Origin: Candidatus Woesebacteria bacterium GW2011_GWF1_31_35 | GTDB taxonomy: Bacteria; Patescibacteriota; Microgenomatia; UBA8517 | Direction: 5' to 3' | NCBI GenBank assembly: GCA_001029755.1 | Contig: CP011214.1 | Span: 493,767 to 557,766, forward strand | DNA length: 64,000 nt | Shown here: one piece after another, positions 25,122-52,588 of the stretch | How positions within the stretch are numbered: position 1 is the first letter of the stretch | Layout: each line of letters opens with the position of its first letter | Position numbers and translations under genes: made by a program | Notes under the pieces: model-generated | Seen by the model: only the letters and a program-made list of their open reading frames with translations | The model's database searches: none | Told to the model about the DNA's origin: nothing

Positions 25122-25122
25122 A

Positions 25123-25392
25123 TTAGTTATCTTTATCAAGTCGATCTAAAAATTGACAAGGAGAAGGATTACTTCTCCCCCTGGTAATAGCAGGATTTGT
25201 ACACTGGACTCTTTTTTCTCCGGAAGCATTTAAATTCATTGGAAATTGGCAACTTGCACGAGACCCTTTTGGAGGACATTCTGGATAACCACCAGGTCTT
25301 GTTTCAAGTGGAGCTGATATACTATTAATTTCAACAAATTTAATATCAGGTGTCATTATTGGATATTGTACTGTTTTTGTGTGATTTTTCAA
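25123..25392 (-). CDS. Hypothetical Cys-rich small protein (antisense in the ybaB-recR spacer)
   Basis: 89-aa ORF with 6 Cys that exactly fills a 285-nt gap; no homology recognised. Confidence 0.3.
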   Translation of the reverse strand: MKNHTKTVQYPIMTPDIKFVEINSISAPLETRPGGYPECPPKGSRASCQFPMNLNASGEKRVQCTNPAITRGRSNPSPCQFLDRLDKDN

Positions 25393-25407
25393 GTAAAATG
25401 AATAGTT

Positions 25408-31454: not shown

Positions 31455-31481
31455 TTTTCTTCAAGTGTAAAATACACATAT

Positions 31482-31540
31482 GTCATTATCTGTAGGGACG
31501 CGTATTTTACCGCCCCACAATTTGATTTTTACTTCAAAGT
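31482..31540 (+). repeat. Copy A of a ~55-nt direct repeat (hairpin plus T-rich tail), left flank of the radical-SAM cassette
   Basis: GTCAT...GGGACGCGTATTTTACCGCCCCACAATTTGATTTTTACTTCAAAGT is about 80% identical to copy B at 34266-34328. Confidence 0.6.
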
Positions 31541-31668
31541 AACGCTACCCAAGGCTAGAAAGGAAAGAGAAATAGTTGAGCGAGACTGTTTAGGTGGGAT
31601 TTTAGCTTCAAGAGTGCCAGAAGATAAATACCACACACCTGAACTCACTATATATTAAGAAAATCTTT

Positions 31669-32796
31669 TCAGATAAAGACATCGTTAGTCTGAGGTGTAC
31701 GTATCATGTAAGGTAGAAGATTAATTCCTTGTTCGTGGCCATTAGCTAAAAGATGAAGCAACAAATTTGATTCATGTCGAATGCAATAAAATGGGCAAGT
31801 TTTTTTTGGGTTAATAGATTTAGCTTTTTCTACACGAGCAGTAGAATTCCAATAGTCTTTAAAATTTATTTCTATTGAACCGATTTTTTCGTTTTCATGT
31901 CCGCGTTTGTATGGGCAGGGGTAAATTCCTTTAGGAGTTACAACAGTTCTTAATTCAACACTTGGACAAGTTTGGTAATCTTTTGGTTGATTTGGAAACT
32001 TGTTTGTTAACAAGTAATCAGTGGATTTTGGCGAAATAACTTGAAATTCATTAGTATTTAATGCCTCCAACAATGGAGTTTGTCTTACTATCTCAGATTT
32101 AGTATTTATGGATAAGGGTATGAGGTTGTGGTGTGCATCTACTGCTGGTTTATATTCAAAATAATCACAACCAAGATCTCTGGCCAATTTAGCAGCAACA
32201 AAAAGTTCTTGCACATTTGTTTTAGGTCGAGCATTGGGTAAATTTCTTTCAATTAATAAAAAGCTATATCCAAGAATACCTTTTTTTACTTTTGCGAGAG
32301 TCTCAATGTTTGCAGTTGTTTTTGAGAATGAATTGAGAATGTGTGATGGCCGAAATTTAGAATATGTTTCCTGTGTCCCCGCATCCATTGAGACACGTGT
32401 CCACTGTACACATTCAGCTATTTCGTTGGTATATCTATTCATAAGTGAACCGTTTGTTGTAAGACCGACAGAAATTCCTAACTCATACGCTTTGATAATT
32501 GGTTCTGGCATCGATTTATGAGTAAGTGGTTCACCTCCACCAATGAATATAATTCCTTTAACATCTGTATCGTGAAATTCGTCTATCAATCCAGTCAATC
32601 TTTCGTCTTCAATACCACCTTTATTAAGAAGATTGGCGTTTATACATTCAGGACATGAGAAATTGCATGCCGTAGTCGGATCTAGTTCTACAACTAATGG
32701 ACCTGATGTTTGTCGTTTTTCAATATATTCTTCAACTCTAGGTAAGAGGTTCGGTTGTAGCATTTTATGTGTAAAATTTAATACTTCAATTGACAT
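31669..32796 (-). CDS. Radical SAM enzyme with Cys-rich C-terminal region
   Basis: CNFSCPEC (CxxxCxxC) cluster, GGGEPL SAM motif, extra C-terminal cysteines (CPSVEL, CPYKRG, CPFYC). Confidence 0.75.
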   Translation of the reverse strand: MSIEVLNFTHKMLQPNLLPRVEEYIEKRQTSGPLVVELDPTTACNFSCPECINANLLNKGGIEDERLTGLIDEFHDTDVKGIIFIGGGEPLTHKSMPEPIIKAYELGISVGLTTNGSLMNRYTNEIAECVQWTRVSMDAGTQETYSKFRPSHILNSFSKTTANIETLAKVKKGILGYSFLLIERNLPNARPKTNVQELFVAAKLARDLGCDYFEYKPAVDAHHNLIPLSINTKSEIVRQTPLLEALNTNEFQVISPKSTDYLLTNKFPNQPKDYQTCPSVELRTVVTPKGIYPCPYKRGHENEKIGSIEINFKDYWNSTARVEKAKSINPKKTCPFYCIRHESNLLLHLLANGHEQGINLLPYMIRTPQTNDVFI

Positions 32797-33865
32797 GGCT
32801 ATTTAATTTATTCACTATAACACCATCGTTCGATGGTTTTGTTACATAAACCTTAACAGGTAATTCTTTTAGGGAATTAGTGACTTGTTTTGTATTACAA
32901 TTTGGAACTAGCGCAAAAGTACACCCTCCCATGCCTGTACCAGTTAATTTTGCACCAATGGCACCATATTTTAGCGATCTTGAAATACACTCTTCAATGA
33001 GATTTGTTGAAACTCCCATATAATCACGCATTAGAGTGTGACAGTGTGAAATTGAAGATCCAAGCTTATTTGCATCAATTACTTTTCCATCTAGAATATT
33101 TTTCATTTCGTTTATAGCATCATTTGTTGTATTGACATATTTCATTATTAGAGTTTCCTTGTTTGCATATCTTATGCGTTTTTTTCTTATAACATCTGCT
33201 GTATTTCTTGGTGTGAGAGTATCGACAATCACTATATCAAATCCGTCAGGGAGAACAAATTTTTCAATATTTTTTGGGGGTATAGTTGAACTATCTAAAT
33301 ATATCAAACCACCAATTCCGCATGAATACATATCCATTTGACCTGCCCCTGTTCTTAACTCCTCGGACTCGATTTTATAAGCTAGATCGCAAATGGTTGT
33401 TGTGTCCAAAATTGATCCATAAAAGTTTGCAATCGCAGCAACACTAGCAACTGAAACTGCAGCACTGCTACTTAGTCCAGCTTTTGCAGGAAGATTGCTT
33501 GTAATCTCTATAGTAATTGGATATGTTTTAATACCTAAATCACTAATTACTTTTATTGCAGCATTTGTATAATCCAACACATGGTGTGAATAATTACCGA
33601 TTTGATCTTTTAATAAATCTATCTCAGAGTTTAATGAGCCTTTAGTTTTTAATTTGAATACATCATTATTGTTTGATACTGAAGCTTTAGTTTTTAAATC
33701 AATGGCACACAAAATCGAAGGACCTGTTATCCAGTCAATATCTTCTCCTGCCAAACAAATTCTTCCTGGCGTCGTGGCTTCAATTTCCTGAAACATTTTA
33801 TATAGATTTGGCAGGAATTTTGTCGTCCTTAAAAATTTGTGAATTGTTGTTTCCAGTGAGAACAA
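32786..33865 (-). CDS. GHMP-family sugar kinase (galactokinase-like signature)
   Basis: GRICLAGEDIDW resembles the galactokinase signature GRxNLIGEHxDY; PAKAGLSSSAA GHMP ATP-binding motif. Confidence 0.7.
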   Translation of the reverse strand: MFSLETTIHKFLRTTKFLPNLYKMFQEIEATTPGRICLAGEDIDWITGPSILCAIDLKTKASVSNNNDVFKLKTKGSLNSEIDLLKDQIGNYSHHVLDYTNAAIKVISDLGIKTYPITIEITSNLPAKAGLSSSAAVSVASVAAIANFYGSILDTTTICDLAYKIESEELRTGAGQMDMYSCGIGGLIYLDSSTIPPKNIEKFVLPDGFDIVIVDTLTPRNTADVIRKKRIRYANKETLIMKYVNTTNDAINEMKNILDGKVIDANKLGSSISHCHTLMRDYMGVSTNLIEECISRSLKYGAIGAKLTGTGMGGCTFALVPNCNTKQVTNSLKELPVKVYVTKPSNDGVIVNKLNSHVN

Positions 33866-34178
33866 GTTTTATAACAACAAAAATCGCGGTTTTATCGTTG
33901 GTGTTTGCAAAAGTGTGTATGCTATTTTCTACACGAATTAAGTCTCCCTTTTGCACAGTTTCCTTTTTTTCTGTTTCTTTTTCTAACCATCTTATTTCCA
34001 GAGACCCATCAATTATAAATATCAACTCTTCTACGACATTGTGCGAGTGCCATTCTTGGGTTGTTCCCGCAGGAATTTCATTATAGTGAAGTTCGTATTC
34101 TGGTTGAAGGTAATAGTCTACCTGGGTGCCATCAGGTTTTTTCCTATGAATAGCATTTAGTCGATTTATAATTTCCAT
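33798..34178 (-). CDS. Cupin-fold protein
   Basis: WHSHNVVEEL (HxH...E) and GDLIRVENSIHTFAN cupin motifs. Confidence 0.6.
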   Translation of the reverse strand: MEIINRLNAIHRKKPDGTQVDYYLQPEYELHYNEIPAGTTQEWHSHNVVEELIFIIDGSLEIRWLEKETEKKETVQKGDLIRVENSIHTFANTNDKTAIFVVIKLVLTGNNNSQIFKDDKIPAKSI

Positions 34179-34265
34179 TATTAAAAGCTGAGCCTAAGTT
34201 TACTACTTTTTGTTTGTAAAATCAAACCCCTATAGGGTGTGTTTAATCTGTTATAATTACGTTAT

Positions 34266-34328
34266 GTCATCGCTTTCTTGTGGGACACTCATTTCACCGT
34301 CCCAACTTTTGATTTTCACTTCAAGTTT
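34266..34328 (+). repeat. Copy B of the ~55-nt direct repeat, right flank of the radical-SAM cassette
   Basis: GTCAT...GGGACACTCATTTCACCGTCCCAACTTTTGATTTTCACTTCAAGTT; perfect GGGAC/GTCCC stem followed by a T-rich tract. Confidence 0.6.
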
Positions 34329-34450
34329 AAGATTCCGGAGCCAAATAAAGACAGGTTGATTTTAGAAAGAGATAATTTGGGAAGAATAATTCATTCAGAG
34401 CTTCTTTTTAACCAAATTAAAGAAGATGTAATTGATAGTTTATAAAAATT

Positions 34451-35083
34451 TTGTATAATCATTATATGATTAACGAGGAAGAACAAGGGACGAACTCTCA
34501 GCAATCAGAAAAACCATCTGCTTCAGAAATATTTAGTGGAAAGGATGTTGTAATTGGAAGAGAATTAGTAGAACTTCTTATTGCAGACGAGGTAGGAGTT
34601 CCTGTTTATTATCACAATTATCAGAATTTAGATAAAAAGATTAATGTAATGGTAGATAGAGAGGTGGGAAATGAAGACTATTCTGTAAGACAGAAAGAGG
34701 AAAATCATGACCAGCTTTTAGGAATAATTATTCCTACAGCTGATGCCAAAGACCAGTTTATATATATAGGTATCATGGAAGACGATTTTGTTTTTCAAGC
34801 AGGTAGCGATCTTCAAGCTGAATTTAACCCAGAGTCGAATGTTAGATATACATTTGGTTGGCAAAGATTTGGCGACAGAATTGCTCAGCATGAGAATGAT
34901 TCTACAACCCCAGAACGCTATAAATTAGAGATTCTGTTCAAAGCTCATGAAGACTCCCAAAGATTTGATACGAAAGTTTTGGAGGCAGTAGAAAAAAGAA
35001 GACAAATTCATGAAGCGATACGAAAATCGAGAACTGAAATAAGGCAAAATCTCAAAGACAAACTTTTTGGTGGATCTAGTTAA
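34451..35083 (+). CDS. Hypothetical soluble protein (island cargo)
   Basis: 210-aa ORF, acidic, with no recognisable motif. Confidence 0.45.
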   Translation: MYNHYMINEEEQGTNSQQSEKPSASEIFSGKDVVIGRELVELLIADEVGVPVYYHNYQNLDKKINVMVDREVGNEDYSVRQKEENHDQLLGIIIPTADAKDQFIYIGIMEDDFVFQAGSDLQAEFNPESNVRYTFGWQRFGDRIAQHENDSTTPERYKLEILFKAHEDSQRFDTKVLEAVEKRRQIHEAIRKSRTEIRQNLKDKLFGGSS

Positions 35084-35303
35084 CAATCTTCGTGTTAAAA
35101 TACTCTCATGTCAGCCTTAAAAGTCGGGATATACAGTTCACTATTCCAAAAATAGAATTTGCTTCATCTTTTATACTTCCGTTGCCTCGTAAAGCTAGGT
35201 TTATAACACAAAGAGATTGCTTGGGTAGAATTTTAAACTCAAAAATACCTCCAACTATATATAATTATCGGTCAACATAATAAGAATTTAAGGTGTAAAA
35301 TGT

Positions 35304-35852
35304 TTGTGTATGGAGGCACCATTTGGAATAATTTTTCTTAAAAAGGCAGAATTGTTTAATTTAGTTTCAAGGTTTGATAAACAATATGGTGGTTCGCCTA
35401 GCAATAATCCTTGGTTGATTGAAAAACAAATCTTAAGATGGACATATGGACACCATAAACATCTGGGTAGTCCAATAAAGACAGAGCATTTATCGTTAGG
35501 TTCTCAGAATAACAAACTTCATGATTTTAAAATGATTGATTCAAAAGGTGGACTGAGGTCGCAATTTAAATATTTAGAAAAAAACAGTTTAACTAAGCCT
35601 CTGGAAAACTTGGTTGTAAGGGGGTTTGCCAATTATTTTAACGAGTCAGAAGGACATAATGCTATTGTCATAAACAAAGATGGTTTACTTGTAGGAGAAG
35701 TAATTGCTGACATGGAAAAGGACAATATTTTTATTAAAGCAAATTATCTCTTTTATAGTCATATGATGGATCATCTTGGTGCCACTGTAATGATGATTGT
35801 TACAACAATAGGTCTGATAAAGTTATTTATCAGTTTTTTTTATGTCAAATAA
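35304..35852 (+). CDS. Hypothetical protein with C-terminal TM helix (island cargo)
   Basis: 182-aa ORF overlapping the next gene by 11 nt. Confidence 0.4.
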   Translation: MCMEAPFGIIFLKKAELFNLVSRFDKQYGGSPSNNPWLIEKQILRWTYGHHKHLGSPIKTEHLSLGSQNNKLHDFKMIDSKGGLRSQFKYLEKNSLTKPLENLVVRGFANYFNESEGHNAIVINKDGLLVGEVIADMEKDNIFIKANYLFYSHMMDHLGATVMMIVTTIGLIKLFISFFYVK

Positions 35853-36534
35853 AATTCAACCCATAACAGACTATTTTTTATCATTATCAGCTAATCCTAT
35901 TGTTAAGGCTCTTTCACAAATCAGCGTATTTACGGCACCAGTTAATTCACTTTTTTCTGGTGAATATAGTCGTCTTAAAGAAGAAGAACTCTTAACTGTT
36001 GTTCATTCGTTACATTCAAAAATTCAAACAATTGAGCAGAGGTTTATTGATAAGGACTTCTTTTCTTCATATGACGGAAAAAGAGCTTTTGGTATGGCAT
36101 TTTCATCTTTATTAAAGGATTCTAGAAAGCAAAAATTAGAAGCTATGTCCAATCTGTTGGTAAATCTGAGTTTAAAATCAAATGTGTCTTATGATGAACG
36201 ACTTTTATTTTTGGATATATTAGATAGTCTTAACCCGTTTCAACTTACTGTTTTAGGAAGAATATATGAATTTAATAAAGAAAATAGACCAAATTTAAGA
36301 AAAATAGAACCTTCTGGTATTGCAGATTATTTTGCAGATAAGGGAATTGATAGACAATTAACACTCCAAGCAATATCTATCCTTGCAAACAATTATATTT
36401 TAAATAGAGATTCTAGCCCTGTATTAGGAGGGGGAGGGTTAACCCATCATTTTACGGATTTTGGTGAAAAATTTTATATATTTATCTCAACAGTATTGGA
36501 TAAAAATAGTGAGTATCTAAAGATAACTAGTTAG
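35842..36534 (+). CDS. Hypothetical protein (island cargo; weak resemblance to Abi-type proteins)
   Basis: 230-aa ORF translationally coupled to the upstream gene; no confident motif. Confidence 0.4.
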   Translation: MSNKIQPITDYFLSLSANPIVKALSQISVFTAPVNSLFSGEYSRLKEEELLTVVHSLHSKIQTIEQRFIDKDFFSSYDGKRAFGMAFSSLLKDSRKQKLEAMSNLLVNLSLKSNVSYDERLLFLDILDSLNPFQLTVLGRIYEFNKENRPNLRKIEPSGIADYFADKGIDRQLTLQAISILANNYILNRDSSPVLGGGGLTHHFTDFGEKFYIFISTVLDKNSEYLKITS

Positions 36535-36748
36535 GTTTGATATCCAACAATTTTGACAATGTTGTATCCAATGCTCTGGCTATATTGTATGCTGTTCTAA
36601 TAGATATATTCCTTCCCTTTTCAATATCCCAGAAATATGCTCTATGTAAGTTTGATTTTTCAGCTAGTTGTTCTTGGGTCATTCCCTTTTCCTTGCGTAG
36701 CCATTCAATTCTTTCACCTAACTTTCTGTAAATAGGTTTGTAATTCAT
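36527..36748 (-). CDS. XRE-family helix-turn-helix transcriptional regulator
   Basis: LRKEKGMTQEQLAEKSNLHRAYFWDIEKG is a canonical XRE/Cro-CI HTH. Confidence 0.8.
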   Translation of the reverse strand: MNYKPIYRKLGERIEWLRKEKGMTQEQLAEKSNLHRAYFWDIEKGRNISIRTAYNIARALDTTLSKLLDIKPN

Positions 36749-36863
36749 ACCCTAAGGGTAGTAGATTCCAAAATAAATCTTTACCAGATATATCTTGCTT
36801 TTATAGTCGTTGGAGGCGTATTATCAAGATAACATGTTCTGTTATCAGAATACTTAGATAGAT

Positions 36864-37556
36864 ATGGAAGAAATACGATTTTCAAAAAATAATGCAAAAA
36901 AATTTAGAAATATTTGGCTTGTAAGTTTATTGCTCTTTGTAGTTTCTATAATAGGTATGCTTTCAAATATTGCCACCGATAATACTGGCACATATTTTGG
37001 TCTGTTTACGCTCATTTTATCCCTTTCTGTTATCGTTGGTTCTTTGTCATTTGTTATATGGATATACAAAATAGGAAATAAAATAATTAAGAATATTATT
37101 AAGATTCTTGGAATGCTAACGGGAAGTATATTTTTTCTTATGATTTTATGGATGATCCTTTTTCGCTATGCGATTGTTGATGGAAGTTCAATGGAGCCAT
37201 CATATAAACACAATGAAATATATCTTGTTAGTAAGTTCGCCCTCAAATCTAGTGATCCTAAACGAGGAGATGTAGTTGATTATTACTTTATTAATAAAAA
37301 TAATGAGAGGATGGGTAGAATAGTGGGTTTACCACACGAAACCATTCTTGTAGCCTCTGACGAGCTTACAGTTGACGGTAATAAGCTTGATGAACCTTAT
37401 GTTGATTGGAGTGAATGGACCAAGGGAAGAGAAGAAAACATCACCCTTAAAGACGGCGAGTTTCTAGTGCTTTTTGATAAAAGGGGTGGGGACATGCAAG
37501 TTATTAAAAAAGAAAACATAATAGGTAAATTTATATTCAAGCTATACGCTAAATGA
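36864..37556 (+). CDS. Signal peptidase I (S26 family)
   Basis: DGSSMEPS catalytic Ser box and GDVVDYYF; two N-terminal TM helices. Confidence 0.7.
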   Translation: MEEIRFSKNNAKKFRNIWLVSLLLFVVSIIGMLSNIATDNTGTYFGLFTLILSLSVIVGSLSFVIWIYKIGNKIIKNIIKILGMLTGSIFFLMILWMILFRYAIVDGSSMEPSYKHNEIYLVSKFALKSSDPKRGDVVDYYFINKNNERMGRIVGLPHETILVASDELTVDGNKLDEPYVDWSEWTKGREENITLKDGEFLVLFDKRGGDMQVIKKENIIGKFIFKLYAK

Positions 37557-38173
37557 AATCTATCTTCAAAAAGTTTTTTTCAGAAATAAAAAGAATGGCA
37601 GATAATTATAGTTCATTAATTTTAATACTGATTTTAATTGTGCTTATTGCTCCTTATGCATTTCAGTTAACAAACAAGTTAAAAAATAATTATGTTTTAA
37701 ATAAAAGGTTCAAGGTAGAACTGAGGGAAAGAGAAATTGAAAAGCTTAAACAAGAAAATGTTAATAACAAAATCAATAATCTAATCCAACAATACAATAT
37801 TGAAACACTTACGAGTGGTGGGTTTGTAAAACTATTATATGAATATTTGGATGCTAAATCAGATATTGAAAGATATTACAAAGATTATAACCTGTCTTGC
37901 GCAGACTTAGCCAATGGAGTGGAATATAAATCTGACTCCACTTTTTTTAATGATATAGACTTCTCTAGATTTACACGAGATATTGCTATTGAAAATTGTC
38001 AGATAGCTAATTCAACAAAAGGTCATTATGAACAATTTATTAAAGAAAAAGGTTTGATTGAAAAACTTATTTCTGAAAACCAAAATAATACAGATCTAGA
38101 AATCAGAGATTTTATATCAAACATTTCTAGACAATTAGTATCCATAAACTTAAAATTGAGTCTATTAGATTAA
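37553..38173 (+). CDS. Hypothetical membrane-anchored coiled-coil protein
   Basis: N-terminal TM, a coiled-coil stretch, 4-nt overlap with the signal peptidase gene. Confidence 0.4.
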   Translation: MKSIFKKFFSEIKRMADNYSSLILILILIVLIAPYAFQLTNKLKNNYVLNKRFKVELREREIEKLKQENVNNKINNLIQQYNIETLTSGGFVKLLYEYLDAKSDIERYYKDYNLSCADLANGVEYKSDSTFFNDIDFSRFTRDIAIENCQIANSTKGHYEQFIKEKGLIEKLISENQNNTDLEIRDFISNISRQLVSINLKLSLLD

Positions 38174-38180
38174 CGAAATT

Positions 38181-38810
38181 ATGAAAAAATATCTGTTGAT
38201 AATATTTTTAGGAGCCCTAACACTTTCTGTATTTACTTTTATTAATAGATCTAACCCAATTATTAATGTTAAAAATACAAACCAATCACCTTCTATAAAA
38301 GATAGTTCTCAAGCAGAATGCCCTTTTTTTGTAGATAAAAACTTTCCAAAAGAATACTTTTCTAATGTATTTAATGAAGTAATGGTGTCTTACCCTCCTT
38401 CTCTGATCACTTCCAATCAAGAAATAATTCCCATTAAAGAAAGATTCAATCCATTAAAAGAACCTTTTGGCGGTGAATTTTATACGATTCCTAAAGGAGC
38501 ATATCCTTGGACCGAAAGAAATTTTGATCTAGATAACGACGAGAAGAAGGAAAGGATTTTATCTGCAGATACTGCCATGAATCACACACCAAATTTGGCA
38601 GTAATTGTTAAGGATGGATACATAATTTATAAAACCAAGGGGGCAAATGTATATATAAGTGAGGTTGGTGACCATAATGGATTTTTTCTCCATGAAAATA
38701 CCGATTGGAATAGTGGAGAATATAAAACCACTAGGTATGTTCATAAGGACGAAAAATTCATTCCTGTTTGGTTTCAAACCTCTTGTGTTGTTAGACCACA
38801 AAGTGACTAA
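38181..38810 (+). CDS. Hypothetical secreted protein
   Basis: Signal peptide MKKYLLIIFLGALTLSVFTF. Confidence 0.4.
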   Translation: MKKYLLIIFLGALTLSVFTFINRSNPIINVKNTNQSPSIKDSSQAECPFFVDKNFPKEYFSNVFNEVMVSYPPSLITSNQEIIPIKERFNPLKEPFGGEFYTIPKGAYPWTERNFDLDNDEKKERILSADTAMNHTPNLAVIVKDGYIIYKTKGANVYISEVGDHNGFFLHENTDWNSGEYKTTRYVHKDEKFIPVWFQTSCVVRPQSD

Positions 38811-39227
38811 CTCCTTGTGTGTATAAGGACTACACATGTTTGTGCCCATCCTCAAGCATCCCATCAAGGCTAGAGTCATTTTCTACAAGCAAAACAACTT
38901 CAATGCAATATCAATGCAATTGCCTAGGCAAGGGCAAGGCTACGCCCTGTGCAAATGTAATGACTATATTGCTAAGTAGCAGGTTTGGTAATTGAACTAT
39001 ACCTACCCTCCATATTAATATTTTGGTTCCCTGTGGGTATTGATATTATTTGATAGATGAGATATATTGATATAGTCAAGAGAGATTGGAGATAGAAAAA
39101 TATACAGAAAGATCTCCAGTTTTCTCCATTACACAAAGTAATTAATACACTAATCATTTAGCACAGCCATTGTCCCAGCTCCATTTGAGCGTTTGACCAA
39201 GGCACCGCATTAAGATTCAAAATTTTT

Positions 39228-39245
39228 AAGACGGTGTCTTTTTTG
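39228..39245 (+). terminator. Intrinsic terminator-like hairpin (AAGAC-GGT-GTCTT followed by TTTTTT)
   Basis: 5-bp GC-containing stem and a 6-T run. It sits at the end of a 450-nt ORF-free GC-shifted segment, inside the 9-bp inverted repeat TTTGACCAA/TTGGTCAAA. Confidence 0.4.
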
Positions 39246-39261
39246 TTGGTCAAATATTTAT

Positions 39262-39444
39262 ATGATTAATGATACTAGTCAAGCTATATTAACAAGCCCA
39301 GAACCCCTTGTAGTGGCTCAAAAGTGTCCTGTGTGTAATGGTTTCGGAACTTTAAAATATGGATCTTTAATTTGTCATGGTTGTTCTGGTAAGGGTTACA
39401 TATTGATACCTAACAATATTAGTTCAAAAAAGAACAAACAATAG
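39262..39444 (+). CDS. Small DnaJ-type zinc-finger protein (two CxxCxGxG repeats)
   Basis: CPVCNGFG and CHGCSGKG. Confidence 0.45.
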   Translation: MINDTSQAILTSPEPLVVAQKCPVCNGFGTLKYGSLICHGCSGKGYILIPNNISSKKNKQ

Positions 39445-39456
39445 AAAGTTGGAATC

Positions 39457-40011
39457 ATGACACTATACAGAATTGAAGATGTTAAAAAGAAATATCCAAA
39501 TTGGTTTTCCGCCGATTCTGAATTAACTTATGATGAACAAAAATGGATATGGGAAAATTCACTGTTACCTGAAGGCAATAACAAAGGCTTAGAACAAGTA
39601 GGTAAACAAGATAGCACAAGTATTAGTCTTATTAGAAGTGTTAGTGGTATACGGAATCTTAAAGAAAATGTAAACGAAAACCGACAGAAAAATGAAGCAA
39701 TTAAGGATCTTCAAGATTACACATACAAAACCCCCCTTAAATTCATAGCGATAAAATTAGAAACCATATTTGGCATATGGGATAAAAAGCCTTTCCACTG
39801 GATATATATAGCAGAGAACTACACTCCTAAAGCAATAAATTCTGTTTTAAGAGAGATGAGAAAACGAAAAGAAAACGGAGGTATGCCATTAGAGATACCT
39901 GGTGCCTATTTTACTAAAGTATTAACAAAGTATCACTCCAAAAGAAAATTACCCAAACGAAAAGAGATTGCATATACCAATGGAGGCATCAAACAGCAAA
40001 ATAATGAATAA
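39457..40011 (+). CDS. Hypothetical protein (island)
   Basis: 184-aa ORF, basic C-terminus. Confidence 0.4.
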   Translation: MTLYRIEDVKKKYPNWFSADSELTYDEQKWIWENSLLPEGNNKGLEQVGKQDSTSISLIRSVSGIRNLKENVNENRQKNEAIKDLQDYTYKTPLKFIAIKLETIFGIWDKKPFHWIYIAENYTPKAINSVLREMRKRKENGGMPLEIPGAYFTKVLTKYHSKRKLPKRKEIAYTNGGIKQQNNE

Positions 40012-40178
40012 GTTAAAAGTTCTAAAACTTAATTTCTATTCGTGCGAAGGAAATGATTATAAACATGAGGTGAATAGTTTTTACTTCAATTTGTTTGACA
40101 ATATTTTAAGAGAAATACGACAAAAGTCATTGACAATAAAGTGTGATATAAATACACTAAAGTTAACTAAAGTATAGT

Positions 40179-40355
40179 ATGAATGATGAATATCTTACAT
40201 TAGAAGAAGTTTCAAAAAAACTAAAAGTGAATAAAATCACAGTTTACAGAATGGCAAAAAGGGGAAAAATCCCTGCATTTAAATTCGGAAAAGTATGGAG
40301 AGTTGATAATAAAAAGTTAGAAAGAATGATAGAAAGAAAATTAAATGGAAAATGA
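40179..40355 (+). CDS. Excisionase-family (HTH_17 / Xis-like) DNA-binding protein, 58 aa, not in the supplied ORF track
   Basis: Translation gives MNDEYLTLEEVSKKLKVNKITVYRMAKRGKIPAFKFGKVWRVDNKKLERMIERKLNGK. The LTxxEVxxxLxVxxxTVYRxxxxGxIPAxKxGxxWR pattern is diagnostic. It overlaps the recombinase start by 11 nt. Confidence 0.65.
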   Translation: MNDEYLTLEEVSKKLKVNKITVYRMAKRGKIPAFKFGKVWRVDNKKLERMIERKLNGK

Positions 40356-41976
40356 CAAAAAAATTGTAGCTATATATGCGAGGGTATCAACTGGAAGGCA
40401 GGAACAGGAAGCAACTATTGAATCTCAATTGGATGAAGTTAAAAGGAAAATTATAGAAGATGGACATATATTACCTGATGAAAATATCTTTATAGATGAT
40501 GGATGGTCTGGCGAACTTATAGCTAGACCAGACCTAGACAGAATGAGGGATTTTGCTTTGACGGGAAAATTTTCTGCTTTATATGTTTATGACAGGGGAA
40601 GATTATCAAGAAGATTTACTCATCAAGAAATAGTTATTGAGGAACTGTCCGATAAAGAAATTGGTTTTATTTCTCTTCATGATATTAATGCACTGACTCC
40701 AGAAGAACATGTTTTGCAAGCAATGCAGGGTGTATTTCACGAATATGAAAGAGTAAAAATTGTTGAAAGGATGAGAAGGGGGAAATTATTTAAAGCAAGG
40801 AACGGAATAGTAATTAGTGGCGATGCTTTGTATGGTTATAAGTATGTTAAAAAGACTGATACTACTCCTACACATTGGGCAATAGATGAAAACGAGAGCG
40901 AAGTGGTTAAGAAAATGTTTAGGTGGTTTGTGATAGATAAAATAGGCATTAACGCAATTATTAACAAGCTATCTGATGAGGGAATTCCAACAAAAAAAGG
41001 TAAGAGTAAACATTGGACTAAAGGACCAGTTAGTAGAATATTGTGTTGTGATACTTACTTTACTGGAGTGGCTTACTACAATAAATCAGAGTCAATTGTA
41101 AGTAAACGAAGGTTAAAGAATGAAAAGTATTTCAAAATCAAGAAAAATAGTCGTAAACAACGACCTAAAGAGGAATGGATTCCATTTGATGTGCCGATAA
41201 TTATAGAAGATAAATCTTTTTTTGATAGATCACTTCAACTATTAAATTACAACAAAAAATTTGCCAATAAGAATAAAAAATTTGACTACATTCTTTCAGG
41301 AAAATTTTACTGTGAACACGGCTTCCCAATGGTTGGAGATGGTAAACAAGGCAGTCAAAGATATTATCGTAGCAGTGATAAAGTTCGCAGGAACGAATTA
41401 AGAACTTGTGATTGTGAGGGGGTGAATGTTTTTGTTGTTGAGGGTCTTTGGTGGAAACATATTAAGGATATAATATCTAATCCTGATTTTATAAAACTGA
41501 AAATTAAAGAATATGTTGAATCAAGAGCAGGAGTTAATACATCATTTGAACAAGACATACTTATAAATAAAACAAAGATCTCTAATTTAACTGATCAGGA
41601 GTCAAAATTTGCACAAATGTATGCTGAGAATTTGATTGATCTTGATCAATTGAGAGGATTGATTAAACAAGTAAAAGATAGGAAATTCATATTTACACGG
41701 AATCTTAAAAAACTAGAAAGAATTAAACCAGTAAAAGTAAGAATTAACGATGAAGAAATATCTCTACTTTACGATAAGGCAAGAGAGGTATTACAATCAC
41801 AAGACTTTTCGGATAAAAATTTGGTGTTACGAGATTTAGTGAGTAAAATAGTATTAAAGAAAGGAGGAGAGGTAAATACATGGATAAATATACCAATAAA
41901 TACCCAATACTTGGAACATGGGACTGAGCGTAGGGATAGTAGGTCTTCCAAATGTGGGGAAGTCCACACTTTTTAA
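40345..41976 (+). CDS. Large serine recombinase (resolvase/invertase catalytic domain, recombinase domain and zinc ribbon)
   Basis: IYARVSTGRQE catalytic Ser motif, DRLSRR-like block (DRGRLSRR), GYKYV recombinase domain, Cys clusters; the 3' end overlaps ychF by 59 nt. Confidence 0.8.
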   Translation: MENDKKIVAIYARVSTGRQEQEATIESQLDEVKRKIIEDGHILPDENIFIDDGWSGELIARPDLDRMRDFALTGKFSALYVYDRGRLSRRFTHQEIVIEELSDKEIGFISLHDINALTPEEHVLQAMQGVFHEYERVKIVERMRRGKLFKARNGIVISGDALYGYKYVKKTDTTPTHWAIDENESEVVKKMFRWFVIDKIGINAIINKLSDEGIPTKKGKSKHWTKGPVSRILCCDTYFTGVAYYNKSESIVSKRRLKNEKYFKIKKNSRKQRPKEEWIPFDVPIIIEDKSFFDRSLQLLNYNKKFANKNKKFDYILSGKFYCEHGFPMVGDGKQGSQRYYRSSDKVRRNELRTCDCEGVNVFVVEGLWWKHIKDIISNPDFIKLKIKEYVESRAGVNTSFEQDILINKTKISNLTDQESKFAQMYAENLIDLDQLRGLIKQVKDRKFIFTRNLKKLERIKPVKVRINDEEISLLYDKAREVLQSQDFSDKNLVLRDLVSKIVLKKGGEVNTWINIPINTQYLEHGTERRDSRSSKCGEVHTF

Positions 41977-42889
41977 TGCTCTTTTAAAAAAGCAACTTGC
42001 ATATGTTGCTAATTTTCCATTTGCAACGATAGAACCTAATATTGGAGTTGTTCCTGTTCCTGATGAAAGACTTACTAAATTATCTAAAATATATAATTCT
42101 CCAATTGTTCCAGCTACTGTTCAATTTGTAGATATTGCAGGACTAATTGCAGGAGCTTCTAAAGGAGAAGGACTTGGAAATAAATTTTTAAGTCACATTA
42201 GAGACGTATCCGCAATTTGTCATGTAATTCGAGTATTTACTGATCCTGACATAATAAAGCAAGGAGTAGTAAGTCCTAAAGATGATTTTGAAATAGTTAA
42301 ACTTGAATTGGATTTAGCTGATCAGCAAACTTTAGAAAATCATGAAAAGAAAAAAAATAAAGATATTGAGAGTTTACCTTTATTTTCTAAAAAACCTATT
42401 TTAATTGTTTTAAATATTGATGAAAAAGATTTAGTTAAGGCAGAAGAATTGGAAGGTGAGTATGCTACCAAACTTGGTGTTTTAAAAGATCAAGTCGTTG
42501 CAGTATCTGCAAAAGTTGAATCAGAACTATCAGAACTTTCAGAAGATGATCAAAAATCATATCTTTCCGATTTAGGTGTTAAAAACTCAGGACTTGAAAG
42601 ACTTATTCAAAAAGCATTTAAAACATTAGGATTAATTACCTTTTTAACTGCAGGTGAAAAAGAAGTTAGGGCTTGGACTATTAAAGATGGAATTACAGCT
42701 CAGGAGGCATCTGGTGTTATTCATACTGATTTTATGAATAAATTTATAAAAGCTGATATTTGTAATTTTAATGATTTTATAGAGAATAATGGATGGAAAA
42801 ACGTTAGAGAATTAGGAAAGGTAAGAAGCGAAGGAAGAGATTATATAGTTAAAGATGGAGATGTTGTTGAATTTAAAATTGGAAGTTAA
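41918..42889 (+). CDS. ychF: Ribosome-binding ATPase YchF (Obg-family GTPase)
   Basis: GIVGLPNVGKSTLFNAL G1 motif and a TGS-like C-terminus. Confidence 0.85.
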   Translation: MGLSVGIVGLPNVGKSTLFNALLKKQLAYVANFPFATIEPNIGVVPVPDERLTKLSKIYNSPIVPATVQFVDIAGLIAGASKGEGLGNKFLSHIRDVSAICHVIRVFTDPDIIKQGVVSPKDDFEIVKLELDLADQQTLENHEKKKNKDIESLPLFSKKPILIVLNIDEKDLVKAEELEGEYATKLGVLKDQVVAVSAKVESELSELSEDDQKSYLSDLGVKNSGLERLIQKAFKTLGLITFLTAGEKEVRAWTIKDGITAQEASGVIHTDFMNKFIKADICNFNDFIENNGWKNVRELGKVRSEGRDYIVKDGDVVEFKIGS

Positions 42890-49448: not shown

Positions 49449-49985
49449 TTGTCAAGCCAACATAAAATATATAGAATGGCATTACCTATGGATATAACTT
49501 TTATTTCAGGCCAAACATTCAAAATTAAAGGTAGAACTGGTATTACTTTAACAGATCCAATTGGTCCAACAATAGAATCTTTAAATGGAGAAAAAAAGAC
49601 GTTTACAGGGCCGGGAGAATATGAAGTTTCTGGAATTTCAATAATTGGAATTTCAACAGATGATGGAACTTTATTTATTTATGAAGTGGACGGCTTAAGA
49701 ATTTGCCATGTTGGAAACTTAAAGAAAAAACTTCCAGAAAACAAATTATCATTTATTGGTGATATCGATATATTGTTAACTTCTATAGGACCTGAAACTA
49801 TTGAAATAATTCAACAAATAGAAAGTTATTATGTAATTCCATTTGATTATGAATCACAAGAACAACTTGATAAATTCTTAAAAGATAGTGGATTAACTGT
49901 AGAAAAAATGTCTAAATTTAGCCTTAAAAAAGAAGAAATAATTGAAGAGTCCTCTGCTCAAGTTATTGTCCTAGAGAAAAATTAA
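49449..49985 (+). CDS. Hypothetical protein
   Basis: 178-aa ORF with no confident motif. Confidence 0.4.
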   Translation: MSSQHKIYRMALPMDITFISGQTFKIKGRTGITLTDPIGPTIESLNGEKKTFTGPGEYEVSGISIIGISTDDGTLFIYEVDGLRICHVGNLKKKLPENKLSFIGDIDILLTSIGPETIEIIQQIESYYVIPFDYESQEQLDKFLKDSGLTVEKMSKFSLKKEEIIEESSAQVIVLEKN

Positions 49986-52588
49986 TGGCAGACATAAATC
50001 AAGTTAGAGTACCTCCGCACTCTGCCGAAGCCGAAGGAAGCGTCCTCGGAGCTCTTCTATTGGATAAAGATGCTGTTATAGCTGTTGCTGAATTTTTACT
50101 ACCTGAGGATTTTTACGATGAACGCAACAAAGAAATATATGAAGCAATGCTTACTTTATATGAAGAAAGAGTTCCAGTTGATGTTTTAACAGTAACTGAA
50201 AAATTAAAAAAGAATAAGAATTTAAAAAAAATAGGTGGTGCATCATATTTAACAGATATTGCCAATAAAGTTCCAACTGCAGCTCATGTTGAGCATTATG
50301 GAAAAATAGTTAAAGATTCTTCAGTTAAAAGAGCTTTAATGAAAGCTGCAAGTAGACTTGTTGATTTTTCAATGGATGAGGGAATGTCATCGGGAGATCT
50401 TTTGGATAGGGCAGAATCAGAAGTTTTCTCTTTAACTCAGAAACATCTAACTAAAGCCTTTACTTCTGTAAGAGATACTTTGGCTGAAAGTTTCGATAGA
50501 TTAGATGAACTTCATAAACAGGGAGAGGGTTTAAGGGGGGTATCAACTGGCTTTGAAGATCTTGATAATGCTTTAGCGGGAATGCAAAAATCGAATCTTT
50601 TAATATTAGCAGCTAGGCCGTCTGTTGGTAAAACTTCATTGGCATTAAACATTGCTCAACATGCAGCTGTAACTGATAAACGATCAGTTGGTTTTTTCTC
50701 ACTTGAAATGAGCAAAGAGGAATTAGTAGATAGACTTTTAGTTGCTCAAGCTGATATTGATGCTTGGAGATTAAAAACAGGAAAATTAACAGAAGAAGAT
50801 TTTACTAAACTATCAAATGCAATGGGAGAGTTAGCCGAAGCGCCTCTTTACATTGATGACACCCCAGCTCTTTCTATATTAGAGATGAGAACAAAAGCAA
50901 GAAGACTTCAGGTTGAACATGGGCTTGACCTTTTGGTTGTTGATTATCTTCAACTTGCAAGAAGTAGAAACTTGGAGAATAGGGTTCAGGAAGTTTCTGA
51001 AATTTCACAAGGACTTAAAAACTTAGCAAGAGAACTTAAAGTTCCAGTTTTAGCTCTATCTCAACTTTCAAGAGGTGTAGAATCAAGGGGAGTAAAAAAG
51101 CCCCAATTATCGGATTTGAGAGAGAGTGGATGTCTTTTGGGGGATACTTTAATAACTCTTTATAAATCAGGCGAAAGAGTCAGAATGGATTCATTAGTTG
51201 GAAAGACAAATTTCAAAGTTTTGGGTATGAATGATAATTTTGAGATTGTACCAGTAACTGTTTCAAAAGTTTTTGAAAGTGGCAAGAAATTATCTTATAA
51301 ATTAATACTTAAAAGTGGGAGAATCGTCTTTGCATCGGGAAATCATCCTTTTTACAAACTTACGGGTTGGGAAAGACTTGATAAACTTAAAGTTAAAGAT
51401 AACATTGCTGTTCCTAGAAAAATTATTAATAAGATAAACTTAAAATCTGCACTTTCTGATTCACGCCTGATTTTACTTGCTCATTTAATTGGCGATGGAT
51501 GCTTTGTTAAAAGACAACCTTTACATTATACAAATTCAGAAATGAAACTTATTAAGATTGTAGAGAAGTCTGCATTAAAGGAATTTAATATAGTTCCTAG
51601 AATTATTAAACAAGAAAATTGGTACCATATCTATCTTTCTTCTAAAGAAAAATTAGCAAGGGGAAGAAGAAACCCAATTGTTAAGTGGTTGGATGAGGAA
51701 TTAAATATTTATGGACAAAGATCAAGAGAAAAAATCATTCCAGATATTGTTTTCCAACAAAATGACAAAAAAATATCATTATTTCTAAAACATTTATGGT
51801 CAACTGATGGATGTATTTATGTTTATAAAGGAAAAGATAAGAGAAAAGTTACTCTTTATTACGCTTCGGGAAGTAGAATATTAGCTGAACATGTATCACA
51901 TTTACTCTTAAGACTTGGAATTATTTCAACGATAACTACTTCAAAAAAGAAAGGTTATGAAGATATATATAATGTTCAAATTCAAGGTAAAGAAAATCAA
52001 ATCAAGTTTATTAGAAAAATAAATTTTGTCGGTATAAAGGCTAATAAATCAATAGAAGCACTTTTATTTTTAAAAAGAATTAAATCAAACCCAAATAATG
52101 ATGTAATTCCAAAAGAAATTTGGGAATATATTGAAAGTATTAGAAGAGAAGAGTGTTTAACAACAAGGGAATTTCATAAAAAAATGGGTTGGGCATATAG
52201 TGGAACACAAAGACATGGAAATGGTGTAGGAAGAGAAAGATTAGATAAAATTGCAAAAATATTAGAGGATAAATATTTATCAAATTTAGCAAACTCAGAT
52301 TTATACTGGGATGAAATAGCAAGTATTGAAAAAATTGGAATTAAAAAAGTATATGATCTGACCGTACCTAAATATTCAAATTTTGTTGCAAATGACATAT
52401 TAGTTCATAACAGTATAGAGCAAGACTCTGACGTCGTTATGTTTTTATGGCGCGAAGATGATGAAAAGATTGAAAATATTAGACTTGATGTTGCAAAACA
52501 CAGGAATGGTCCTTTAGCTTCAGTTCCATTATTCTTTAAAGGAGACAGAATAAAGTTCTATGCAAGAGATGTAAAAAGTGGGAAATAA
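49985..52588 (+). CDS. dnaB: Replicative DNA helicase DnaB interrupted by an intein
   Basis: DnaB N-domain, Walker A (ARPSVGKTS) and H4 motif (SQLSRGVESR). The extein resumes with SIEQDSDVVMFLWRED after a 427-aa insertion. Confidence 0.9.
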   Translation: MADINQVRVPPHSAEAEGSVLGALLLDKDAVIAVAEFLLPEDFYDERNKEIYEAMLTLYEERVPVDVLTVTEKLKKNKNLKKIGGASYLTDIANKVPTAAHVEHYGKIVKDSSVKRALMKAASRLVDFSMDEGMSSGDLLDRAESEVFSLTQKHLTKAFTSVRDTLAESFDRLDELHKQGEGLRGVSTGFEDLDNALAGMQKSNLLILAARPSVGKTSLALNIAQHAAVTDKRSVGFFSLEMSKEELVDRLLVAQADIDAWRLKTGKLTEEDFTKLSNAMGELAEAPLYIDDTPALSILEMRTKARRLQVEHGLDLLVVDYLQLARSRNLENRVQEVSEISQGLKNLARELKVPVLALSQLSRGVESRGVKKPQLSDLRESGCLLGDTLITLYKSGERVRMDSLVGKTNFKVLGMNDNFEIVPVTVSKVFESGKKLSYKLILKSGRIVFASGNHPFYKLTGWERLDKLKVKDNIAVPRKIINKINLKSALSDSRLILLAHLIGDGCFVKRQPLHYTNSEMKLIKIVEKSALKEFNIVPRIIKQENWYHIYLSSKEKLARGRRNPIVKWLDEELNIYGQRSREKIIPDIVFQQNDKKISLFLKHLWSTDGCIYVYKGKDKRKVTLYYASGSRILAEHVSHLLLRLGIISTITTSKKKGYEDIYNVQIQGKENQIKFIRKINFVGIKANKSIEALLFLKRIKSNPNNDVIPKEIWEYIESIRREECLTTREFHKKMGWAYSGTQRHGNGVGRERLDKIAKILEDKYLSNLANSDLYWDEIASIEKIGIKKVYDLTVPKYSNFVANDILVHNSIEQDSDVVMFLWREDDEKIENIRLDVAKHRNGPLASVPLFFKGDRIKFYARDVKSGK
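51131..52411 (+). mobile_element. Intein (Hint domain with LAGLIDADG homing-endonuclease module) in the DnaB helicase domain
   Basis: N-terminal splice junction RESG|CLLGDTLI, LAHLIGDGCF LAGLIDADG motif, C-terminal junction ILVHN|S; in frame with dnaB. Confidence 0.8.

Follow-up and report, generated by a model that had tools for sequence, protein, structure and literature searches.

The described systems closest to the one studied here, a large serine recombinase (LSR) gene, int, carried by an element at the 5' end of ychF in a 64,000-nucleotide stretch of Candidatus Woesebacteria bacterium GW2011_GWF1_31_35 (contig CP011214.1, positions 493,767 to 557,766; hereafter the window), include the staphylococcal cassette chromosome (SCC, SCCmec) elements, whose recombinases CcrAB and CcrC act at rlmH (orfX). 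Both are alike in the use of an LSR at the end of a conserved single-copy housekeeping gene that is kept intact, and in the formation of tandem islands with recombinase-less members. However, the 3' end of rlmH is the target in SCC, whereas the 5' end of ychF is used here. In SCC the attachment (att) site is not spanned by the ccr genes, the recombinase is left whole, and the junctions carry no promoter and start codon. The best NCBIfam matches of the int product are CcrB (91 bits) and CcrC (85 bits) against cut-offs of 900, which places it outside the Ccr families.

Comparable islands lie at ssrA in Dehalococcoides, where DsiB, a CcrB-like LSR, is encoded beside the junction with a single-copy essential gene and tandem arrays are found; 15 islands without an integration module were proposed to be cis-mobilizable and moved by accretion (PMC3146451). 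These islands differ in their target, the 3' end of the transfer-messenger RNA gene, in their 20-bp direct repeat, in their large size and in their unsplit integrase (PMC3146451). The gene ychF has already been reported as an LSR target, since actinobacterial pipolins with LSRs integrate there (PMC11551731); neither their place within ychF nor a site inside the recombinase gene is given in the accessible part of that source. Pipolins, however, carry piPolB, whereas a Pfam search of the open reading frames (ORFs) between 31.5 and 41.9 kb of the window returned no polymerase, piPolB or other pipolin gene.

Genes divided by their own attachment site are known as well. In the SSV-type 'suicidal' tyrosine integrases attP lies inside the integrase ORF and the gene is partitioned on integration, an arrangement called exclusively archaeal (PMC8371274); the window, in contrast, holds a bacterial serine recombinase of which only a C-terminal tail of ~50 aa would be exchanged, the recognised domains staying in one ORF. 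In mycobacteriophages BPs, Brujita and their relatives, attP lies inside the repressor gene, and the differing C-termini of the viral and prophage forms drive the switch (PMC3694055). There the affected gene is the repressor, the recombinase is a tyrosine integrase and a degradation tag is removed, whereas here the integrase itself is affected and its tail of ~50 aa is conserved. Integrons resemble the present system in their rows of small, mostly single-gene, co-oriented cassettes at a fixed site, with NUDIX, GNAT, toxin and unknown genes as cargo; they differ in their tyrosine recombinase IntI and attC hairpins, in place of the serine enzyme and duplex attL-type sites found here, where in addition every junction carries a promoter-like element and a start codon, and the recombinase itself resides on the mobile element.

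Phage serine integrases such as those of LI/A118, Bxb1 and phiC31 have the same order of domains as the present enzyme; their attP, of ~56 bp, likewise has outer motifs in inverted orientation around a central dinucleotide, and the 5-bp inward shift of the motif in attB is seen here on the right arm. In these phages attP lies outside int; their directionality is attributed, in the accessible part of the sources, to a separate factor. A full-text literature search returned no report of a serine integrase gene spanning attP, nor of this Patescibacteria family. We regard the system as one of LSR-driven integration and accretion, in which the integrase gene is split and the cassette junctions bear promoter-like elements.

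Overlap of the integrase gene with ychF

The features at the right end of the element are as follows.

40179-40355, plus strand: HTH_17/excisionase-family gene, 58 aa, 3' end overlapping the int start (Pfam HTH_17, E 9.5e-14)
40345-41976, plus strand: int, LSR gene as integrated, 543 aa (Pfam Resolvase, Recombinase)
41905-41957, plus strand: attR, with P-arm outer motif CAATACTTGGAA at 41905-41916, ychF ATG and codons 2-5 at 41918-41932, GG at 41933-41934 and B' motif TTCCAA at 41946-41951
41918-42889, plus strand: ychF, 323 aa, intact, begins MGLSVGIVGLPNVGKST (matches YchF-GTPase_C, MMR_HSR1)

The reading frames of int and ychF overlap by exactly 59 nt. This overlap is very probably the attR of a 6.8-kb LSR element inserted in ychF, with an attP that splits int, the displaced 3' segment of int (here termed ext) at the far end of the element, and an array of cassettes to its left. 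An earlier note on this DNA had given the same overlap and ychF start, both exact, and had taken them for a probable integration junction at which the start of ychF was re-supplied or preserved; the integration reading is supported, while the note missed the attP inside int, the true integrase C-terminus at attL and the composite nature of the locus, which comprises three segments.

Against Pfam, the int product matches Resolvase (PF00239, E 6.3e-26, residues 8-154) and Recombinase (PF07508, E 1.3e-13), and Zn_ribbon_recom (PF13408) scores a sub-threshold 22.1 bits (cut-off 25.3), the latter domain being recorded for most homologs. Residues Y11, R13, V14, S15 and T16 of the resolvase catalytic domain are invariant among 31 int homologs, and the AlphaFold model of homolog P0008 displays long helices between strands (residues 365-466), as in a coiled-coil insertion. 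By its catalytic domain, Recombinase domain and zinc ribbon with coiled-coil insertion, the int product is, as judged from its sequence, a large serine recombinase. The 58-aa helix-turn-helix protein encoded upstream, called Xis-like in the earlier note, exceeds the cut-off of the NCBIfam excisionase domain TIGR01764 (score 43.7, cut-off 28.8) and also has PHROG excisionase matches; a similar ORF lies directly 5' of 27 of the 71 int starts, and we regard this protein as a candidate directionality factor or regulator. A promoter-like TTGACA-N17-TACACT at 40130-40158, 20 nt 5' of the HTH_17 gene, may drive the HTH_17-int pair; a scan for -35/-10 hexamers found no enrichment of such promoters over shuffled sequence.

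The protein search with int returned 976 relatives at E < 1e-10. Among the best 60 (44-95% identical), nearly all C-termini are variants of ...LGYEPISRNCWxxECGEVxxF, which is what a frame shift of one base makes of the YchF N-terminus M-x-L-S-V-G-I-V-G-L-P-N-V-G-K-S-T-L-F. A locus scan limited to a single genome per species gave 63 loci, and ychF begins ~55 nt before the int stop in 29 of them (these loci were sampled through sequence patterns, and the counts are not frequencies); since the overlap recurs in 29 independent genome loci, with integrases 33-77% identical to that of the window, it is not due to chance. The source names of the 29 loci include Woesebacteria, Levyibacteriota, Collierbacteria, Daviesbacteria, Roizmanbacteria and Saccharibacteria, and those of the int homologs and loci as a whole are mostly Patescibacteria (Woesebacteria, Microgenomates and others). 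No ychF was found near the distant int homologs, which carry Chloroflexota, Anaerolineae, Planctomycetota and other names (at most 45% identity, mostly 25-34%).

Conservation of the last ~20 int codons as protein sequence had been named in advance as an argument against insertion. The tail is indeed shared by homologs, but over the first 20 ychF codons of the 29 junctions entropy is 0.37, 0.21 and 1.41 at ychF codon positions 1, 2 and 3; with the variation carried by position 3 of ychF, the int tail is ychF-constrained read-through and not conserved integrase sequence. Codons 1-530 of int belong to the element and only the last 13 (41935-41973) to the host ychF, out of frame, whereas the first 16-17 nt of the overlap (41918-41934) are element sequence coding in both frames, so that the first 16 nt of ychF are now supplied by the element. 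In every member examined the int ORF lacks a stop of its own before the crossover; in the window its stop is the TAA within the ychF codons TTT-AAT (Phe-Asn), and int homologs with longer tails read on through a Gln here, which a TTC Phe codon would yield.

Two observations concern the sampled loci. Several contigs (L006, L008, L011, L019 and others) are titled 'uncultured Gammaproteobacteria bacterium', 'Methylomirabilota' or 'Methanofastidiosum' despite Patescibacteria-type genes, and are probably mis-binned or mislabelled metagenome-assembled genomes. In addition, the end of an Andersenbacteria homolog (L031, 9947-11756; 39% identity, 593 aa) overlaps a short non-ychF ORF (MLRVGKG...) with no ychF downstream, which may represent a different target or a decayed junction.

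Displaced C-terminus, attachment sites and composite locus

Three homologs (P0008, P0018 and P0043) diverge from the other homologs right after ...SRD and continue into ~45 conserved residues, ..FTVPTFDFYFKxxLPKxRKERxIxxRDxLGRIxxSxxP, i.e., ext. A tblastn search with ext located three plus-strand copies in the window (~31.49, 34.28 and 35.12 kb), each preceded by a -10 box (TAAAAT or TATAAT) whose end lies 6 nt upstream of an ATG, 5-6 ychF-like codons (MSLSV, MSSLSC and MSALKV) and GGGA. Joining window positions 40345-41934 to 35128-35283 yields an ORF of 580 aa, with ...TERRD|IQFTIPK... across the junction, in which the crossover falls within codon 530, thus placing attP inside the integrase ORF. 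Such in-frame int-ext fusions exist in seven distinct contigs (P0008, P0018, P0043, L074, L103, L107 and L142), with 580 aa in P0008, 579 aa in P0043, 573 aa in P0018 and 573-584 aa overall; the ext frame always continues the int frame across the crossover. We conclude that ext is, as far as its coding signature and these fusions indicate, the integrase C-terminus.

Three segments bounded by att sites (E1, E2 and E3) make up the locus, in which an array of attL-type sites (S1, S2 and S3) ends in a single attR.

31466-31524, plus strand: S1, outermost attL-type junction, with -10 TAAAAT at 31468-31473, displaced ychF start ATGTCATTATCTGTA at 31480-31494, GG at 31495-31496 and P' arm
31494-31658, plus strand: ext copy 1, orphan integrase 3' segment, RDAYFTAPQFDFYFKVTLPKARKEREIVERDCLGGILASRVPEDKY..., ending at a stop (hidden Markov model (HMM) score 82.7; coding signature in frame)
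31497-34281, no strand assigned: E1, integrase-less, 2.8 kb, with minus-strand cargo (Pfam): radical SAM 31669-32796, GHMP kinase 32786-33865, cupin 33798-34178
34249-34311, plus strand: S2, second attL-type junction, with TGtTATAAT at 34249-34257, start ATGTCATCGCTTTCTTGT at 34264-34281, GG at 34282-34283 and P' arm with GTCCCAACTTTTG
34281-34445, plus strand: ext copy 2, orphan integrase 3' segment, WDTHFTVPTFDFHFKFKIPEPNKDRLILERDNLGRIIHSEL... (HMM score 87.1)
34284-35125, plus strand: E2, integrase-less cassette, 0.84 kb, one 210-aa ORF (34451-35083) of unknown function
35093-35155, plus strand: S3, attL of E3, with TGtTAAAAT at 35093-35101, displaced ychF start ATGTCAGCCTTAAAAGTC at 35108-35125, GG at 35126-35127 and P' arm with TTCCAA at 35144-35149 and 12-nt outer motif at 35144-35155
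35125-35280, plus strand: ext copy 3, displaced int 3' end, 51 codons and stop (reconstruction, in frame with int)
35128-41932, plus strand: E3, integrase-bearing element, 6.8 kb (cargo by Pfam; collinear with L006)

The left boundary of E3 is fixed by L006, whose element (integrase 77% identical) is collinear with E3: homology begins at S3 and continues through ychF and beyond, and the left flank is unrelated. Thus the partner site anticipated at the left boundary lies at 35126-35127. Direct, inverted and mismatch-tolerant k-mer searches near 41.9 kb found no partner site in the window, as expected for a serine integrase, and the partner emerged only through the protein-level match of ext. 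The junctions also bear out the proposed re-supply of the ychF start, since the three left junctions retain a displaced start (ATG and ~5-6 codons) and the int 3' end provides ATG and codons 2-5. S1 lies 26 nt past the stop (31454) of an ABC-3 permease gene. The right ends of E1 and E2 are promoter-type arms and not int 3' ends. A homolog of the E2 ORF (43% identity) occurs in the ext-to-ychF cassette of L124.

Among related genomes, L083 comes closest to offering an unoccupied attB: it matches both window flanks (ABC-3 permease 64% and YchF 70% amino-acid identity; recR, cysS and ssb) and carries between them four different integrase-less cassettes and a native promoter-ATG-ychF site. Within E3, besides the HTH_17 gene and int, the genes are an HTH_3 cI-like gene (36527-36748, minus strand), an S26 peptidase-like gene (36864-37556), a small Zn-finger ORF (39262-39444) and others of unknown function. 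As for E1, its radical SAM product matches viperin-like models weakly (pVip of PADLOC at E 2e-14; viperin of NCBIfam at 47 bits, cut-off 180) and its GHMP kinase has weak mevalonate/galactokinase-like matches, all E1 matches being below curated cut-offs; the cargo may be a small nucleotide-modifying or defence module.

Attachment sites were compared by alignment of 32 int-side left (P), 78 ext-side right (P'), 76 promoter-side left (B) and 29 ychF-side right (B') arms. The consensus attP is CAAAAGTTGGGA-N16-GG-N16-TCCCAACTTTTG, about 56 bp, in which the 12-nt motif CAAAAGTTGGGA stands inverted in P and P', in each case at positions 17-28 from the central GG. The imperfect inverted repeats around a central dinucleotide that the earlier note expected are hence found, as a consensus repeat that is perfect and equidistant from GG, and, in the attP reconstructed for the window itself, as a match at 16 of the 28 positions of the arms. 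The crossover, expected within 41.88-41.98 kb, maps to the GG at 41933-41934, i.e., nucleotides 1-2 of the ychF Gly6 codon, and GG is the central dinucleotide in 129 of 132 sites; the other att centres of the window are 35126-35127, 34282-34283 and 31495-31496. The motif TTCCAA lies at +12 to +17 in B' and at +17 to +22 in P', that is, 5 bp nearer to the centre in the ychF arm, where it is the reverse complement of the ychF Gly-Leu-Pro-Asn codons (..CTTCCAAAT..). In the LI integrase model the attB motif is likewise shifted 5 bp inward relative to attP (PMC3783163).

The reconstructed junctions are CAATACTTGGAACATGGGACTGAGCGTAGG|GATATACAGTTCACTATTCCAAAAATAG for attP (core ...GAGCGTAGG|GATATACAGTTC...) and TGTTAAAATACTCTCATGTCAGCCTTAAAAGTCGG|GATAGTAGGTCTTCCAAATGTGG for attB, the latter encoding MSALKVGIVGLPNVGKST, an intact ychF start. 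As the ychF start is repeated in the 16 nt of the P arm nearest the centre, attL and attR share ~20 similar bases, though the true crossover is of 2 bp. Apart from the left (B) arm, the window sites are a canonical LSR site set, peculiar in the P arm that duplicates the start of ychF. Three further observations concern these arms. The P arms of the 32 loci have AAAAGT (ATACTT in the window, within 41905-41917) where the B arms have the -10 box TAAAAT, both 6 nt from the ATG. The hexamer AAAAGT retains the two most important -10 bases of sigma-70 promoters; the P and B arms may have a common origin, and downstream of attR a weak promoter that overlaps the integrase-binding motif may still serve ychF, with a leaderless transcript. 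In L017 (11562-11590) the ychF Gly6 codon at attR is GCG (protein MGLSVAIVG) and the matching attL has GG; with central dinucleotides thus mismatched, excision is expected to be blocked and the element locked in place. A candidate by which the resident Int would recognise only S3 found no support, the P' arm of S2 matching the resident P arm at 18 of 28 positions and that of S3 at 16 of 28.

Six-frame translations of every fetched locus, searched with an HMM, yielded 133 ext copies, each on the strand that carries the ychF or int match of its locus. From these, 101 were scored as following an ATG, although two of them proved on inspection to lie behind int 3' ends, and 6 as int fusions; the others have no ATG or lie at contig ends. 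In 85 unique full-length copies the entropy at codon positions 1, 2 and 3 is 0.84, 0.52 and 1.18, and the frame of ext has a ratio of nonsynonymous to synonymous variation (pN/pS) of 0.40, compared with 1.24 and 1.39 for the two alternative frames; selection of the copies by a protein profile biases amino-acid conservation but does not create an excess of third-position variation. No significant match of ext was found among Pfam families or PDB sequences, and a word-indexed protein search with the Int C-terminus plus ext returned only 7 short ORFs or fragments.

Cassette arrays, proposed cycle and alternative explanations

A metagenome scan with an ext alignment (a 5-sequence subset, the 15-sequence version being too diverse for a locus scan) gave 204 confirmed stretches, and 79 distinct loci were fetched. 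In many of these, 2-5 ext copies stand 0.1-1.5 kb apart directly 5' of a ychF with a promoter-type arm, with no integrase in the fetched stretch. The 50 unique integrase-less segments of other loci measure 0.26-5.3 kb (median about 1 kb) and mostly hold one or two genes, and the 11 integrase-bearing segments measure 6.2-11.4 kb. Cassette ORFs are co-oriented with ychF in 66 cases and opposed in 13, and their cargo comprises NUDIX (6), exo/endonuclease-phosphatase (3), GNAT, MazF, methyltransferases, CorA, HAD, a glycoside hydrolase and many unknowns. The consensus of 86 unique junctions is aTGtTAAAAT-N6-ATG, from which native ychF mRNA would be leaderless and each junction promoter would read into the next cassette.

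Two array orders were found, one with cassettes left of the integrase element, as in the window, and another with the integrase element on the left and int fused to the ext of the next segment (L001, L074 and L103). In L074 (8399-19153) a 584-aa int-ext fusion precedes a defence-like set (PLD-SNF2 helicase, Eco57I-type methylase, UvrD helicase and PD-(D/E)XK nuclease), with no ychF within the 10 kb fetched, and thus large islands can lie 3' of the integrase element. In the window, E1 and E2 are att-bounded, integrase-less segments adjoining an integrase element at one target, as in accretion islands. Partial cores (..AAAGTTGGGAC) followed by unrelated sequence lie ~40-50 nt 5' of junction promoters in L081 (~2360-2380), L089 (~1125-1140) and L095 (~9120-9135), and look like scars of cassettes reduced to almost nothing.

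The sequence itself shows where the sites lie, that int is split, that ychF is preserved and how the array is built; these arrangements are consistent with the following cycle, which draws on established LSR behaviour. The P' arm and ~130 nt beyond it encode the last ~50 integrase residues, and with attP inside int, integration swaps these residues and would leave small cassettes each with a spare integrase tail; since the P arm is the int 3' end, whose second frame reads ATG and ychF codons 2-5, ychF remains intact after insertion. Recombination of attP with attB would have placed E3 at the promoter-bearing ychF site, right of E2. In the integrated state ext stands behind the displaced host ychF start (with its -10 box 6 nt 5'), and int ends in 13 unselected ychF-derived codons. 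Excision would proceed by attL and attR, probably with a directionality factor, for which the HTH_17 protein is a candidate, and the single attR could pair with any of the three attL sites: with an outer attL the cassettes would be carried along, and with the inner one they would stay and a native-type, promoter-bearing ychF site would be restored, in line with the accretion and cis-mobilisation suggested for the ssrA islands of Dehalococcoides (PMC3146451). Excision would rebuild int with the ext of whichever attL was used, giving the 580-aa form, and this would explain the purifying selection on cassette ext. The 580-aa form alone, or best, would integrate, and the truncated form, possibly with the HTH_17 protein, would excise.

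Recombination might in this manner rewrite the recombinase gene, excision assembling an integration-competent enzyme and integration leaving an excision-only or inactive form, so that direction would reside in DNA topology and not in a separate factor, and cassettes, each starting with a spare integrase 3' exon and closing with a promoter and ychF start, would accumulate at ychF as in integrons; we offer this as a tentative and rather doubtful proposal, the effect of the tail swap and the origin of the cassettes being what we infer from the arrangement. Serine integrases are valued for their simple and switchable directionality, and here the C-terminus would differ between the excised and integrated states; if the tail did control directionality or activity, it would constitute a self-contained switch. 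Moreover, the integrase family is large and diverse with computed att sites, and is therefore a source of candidate orthogonal integrases, and the ychF 5' end appears to be a major hotspot of gene gain in Patescibacteria, with the promoter-like junction elements as a route into the accessory-gene flow of an unculturable group.

Several points weigh against the interpretation of the overlap as the attR of a mobile element with a split int. Canonical LSR reactions do not explain the first promoter-type right end of a cassette. The fused int-ext genes with known flanks (L001, L074 and L103) lie in chromosomal tandem arrays and not in demonstrably circular contigs (those checked for circularity had no terminal overlaps), hence the excised form is what we infer from them. 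The island is present in each of the 24 contigs examined for this organism, with no excised circle or empty site of this strain found; exact-sequence look-ups with the ABC-3 and YchF proteins of the flanks led to no locus other than the occupied one, and the exact reconstructed attB pattern had no match in metagenome contigs. On the left, neither the 76 aligned B arms nor the window site has a clear motif symmetric to that of B'. An in-frame ATG, mostly 10-11 codons 5', precedes ext in 36 of 72 intact cassette copies. Lastly, AlphaFold models the body of the fused protein with confidence, whereas ext has a predicted local distance difference test score below about 55, and therefore structure is uninformative on the role of ext.

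Regarding the cassettes, the integrase-less segments might be full elements that have decayed, with ext copies as fossils and no cassette mobilisation. Truncated or degenerate ext copies do exist (~20 of 133 have no ATG or cover the profile partially), and the Dehalococcoides ssrA tandem islands include integrase-less members that are possibly fixed (PMC3146451). However, most ext copies are full length and under purifying selection, the cassettes are small, mostly of one or two genes and predominantly co-oriented, and their right ends are promoter-type arms, which simple decay of int does not produce. The recurrence of the E2 cargo homolog beside ychF in a cassette of another genome (L124) also speaks against fossils, and is the single, indirect sign of co-mobilisation; near-identical cassettes in different contexts gave too few close pairs to define a mobile unit. 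We consider decay without mobilisation unlikely.

A further explanation would have ext as a free-standing protein of ~60 aa heading every cassette, its fusion to int being incidental. In its favour are the in-frame ATG of half the intact copies, the ext ORFs of 26-206 aa given by gene callers (194 representatives match, the best 150 all short) and a coding signature kept even though ~90% of copies are not next to int. Against this, 26 of the 72 intact copies have no possible in-frame start codon, and the ATG that recurs falls on the TGn of an extended -10 box and is equally common at native ychF sites. In addition, the frame always continues that of int across the crossover, fused proteins of 573 to 584 aa are encoded in the seven contigs mentioned, and no int stop precedes the crossover in any member examined. 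A free protein heading every cassette is thus quite improbable, and we hold it equally improbable that some cassettes produce a small free ext protein.

Since a cI-like HTH_3 repressor, an excisionase-like HTH_17 protein and a serine integrase are all encoded in E3, a prophage remnant with an ordinary serine-integrase attR was also considered. This candidate was rejected as highly improbable, because the PHROGs search of E3 returned no capsid, terminase, tail or lysis gene; furthermore, a search of 2.9 million viral contigs gave no integrase relative, and in the related elements of 6-11 kb no phage module is recognisable. Finally, that the recombinase is a fixed, domesticated neighbour of ychF (e.g., a regulator of its expression) with an ordinary overlap in a compact genome is scarcely credible, for although the int-ychF arrangement is kept across many Patescibacteria lineages and occurs in all 24 contigs examined for the organism with no circular form found, the ychF start is duplicated at the left junctions, the cargo differs wholly between syntenic genomes (the window against L083, and against the left flank of L006), the int-bearing segments vary from 6.2 to 11.4 kb, and the architecture of attP and of the right attB arm is that of a canonical LSR.

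Other observations in the window

The window has a G+C content of about 30%, and both its genes and the names attached to their homologs indicate Patescibacteria, nearest to Woesebacteria. An Rfam search of the window returned only three tRNAs. A 286-nt gap between a ybaB-like gene and recR (25122-25407) had no Rfam match at gathering score and one weak, chance-level hit, and contains on the minus strand a Cys-rich ORF of 89 aa (77 aa as called in the source assembly). At 49985-52588 (L070 18068-20671) lies an 867-aa DnaB helicase gene with Intein_splicing and LAGLIDADG_3 between two DnaB_C Pfam hits, which suggests that dnaB holds an intein with a homing endonuclease.

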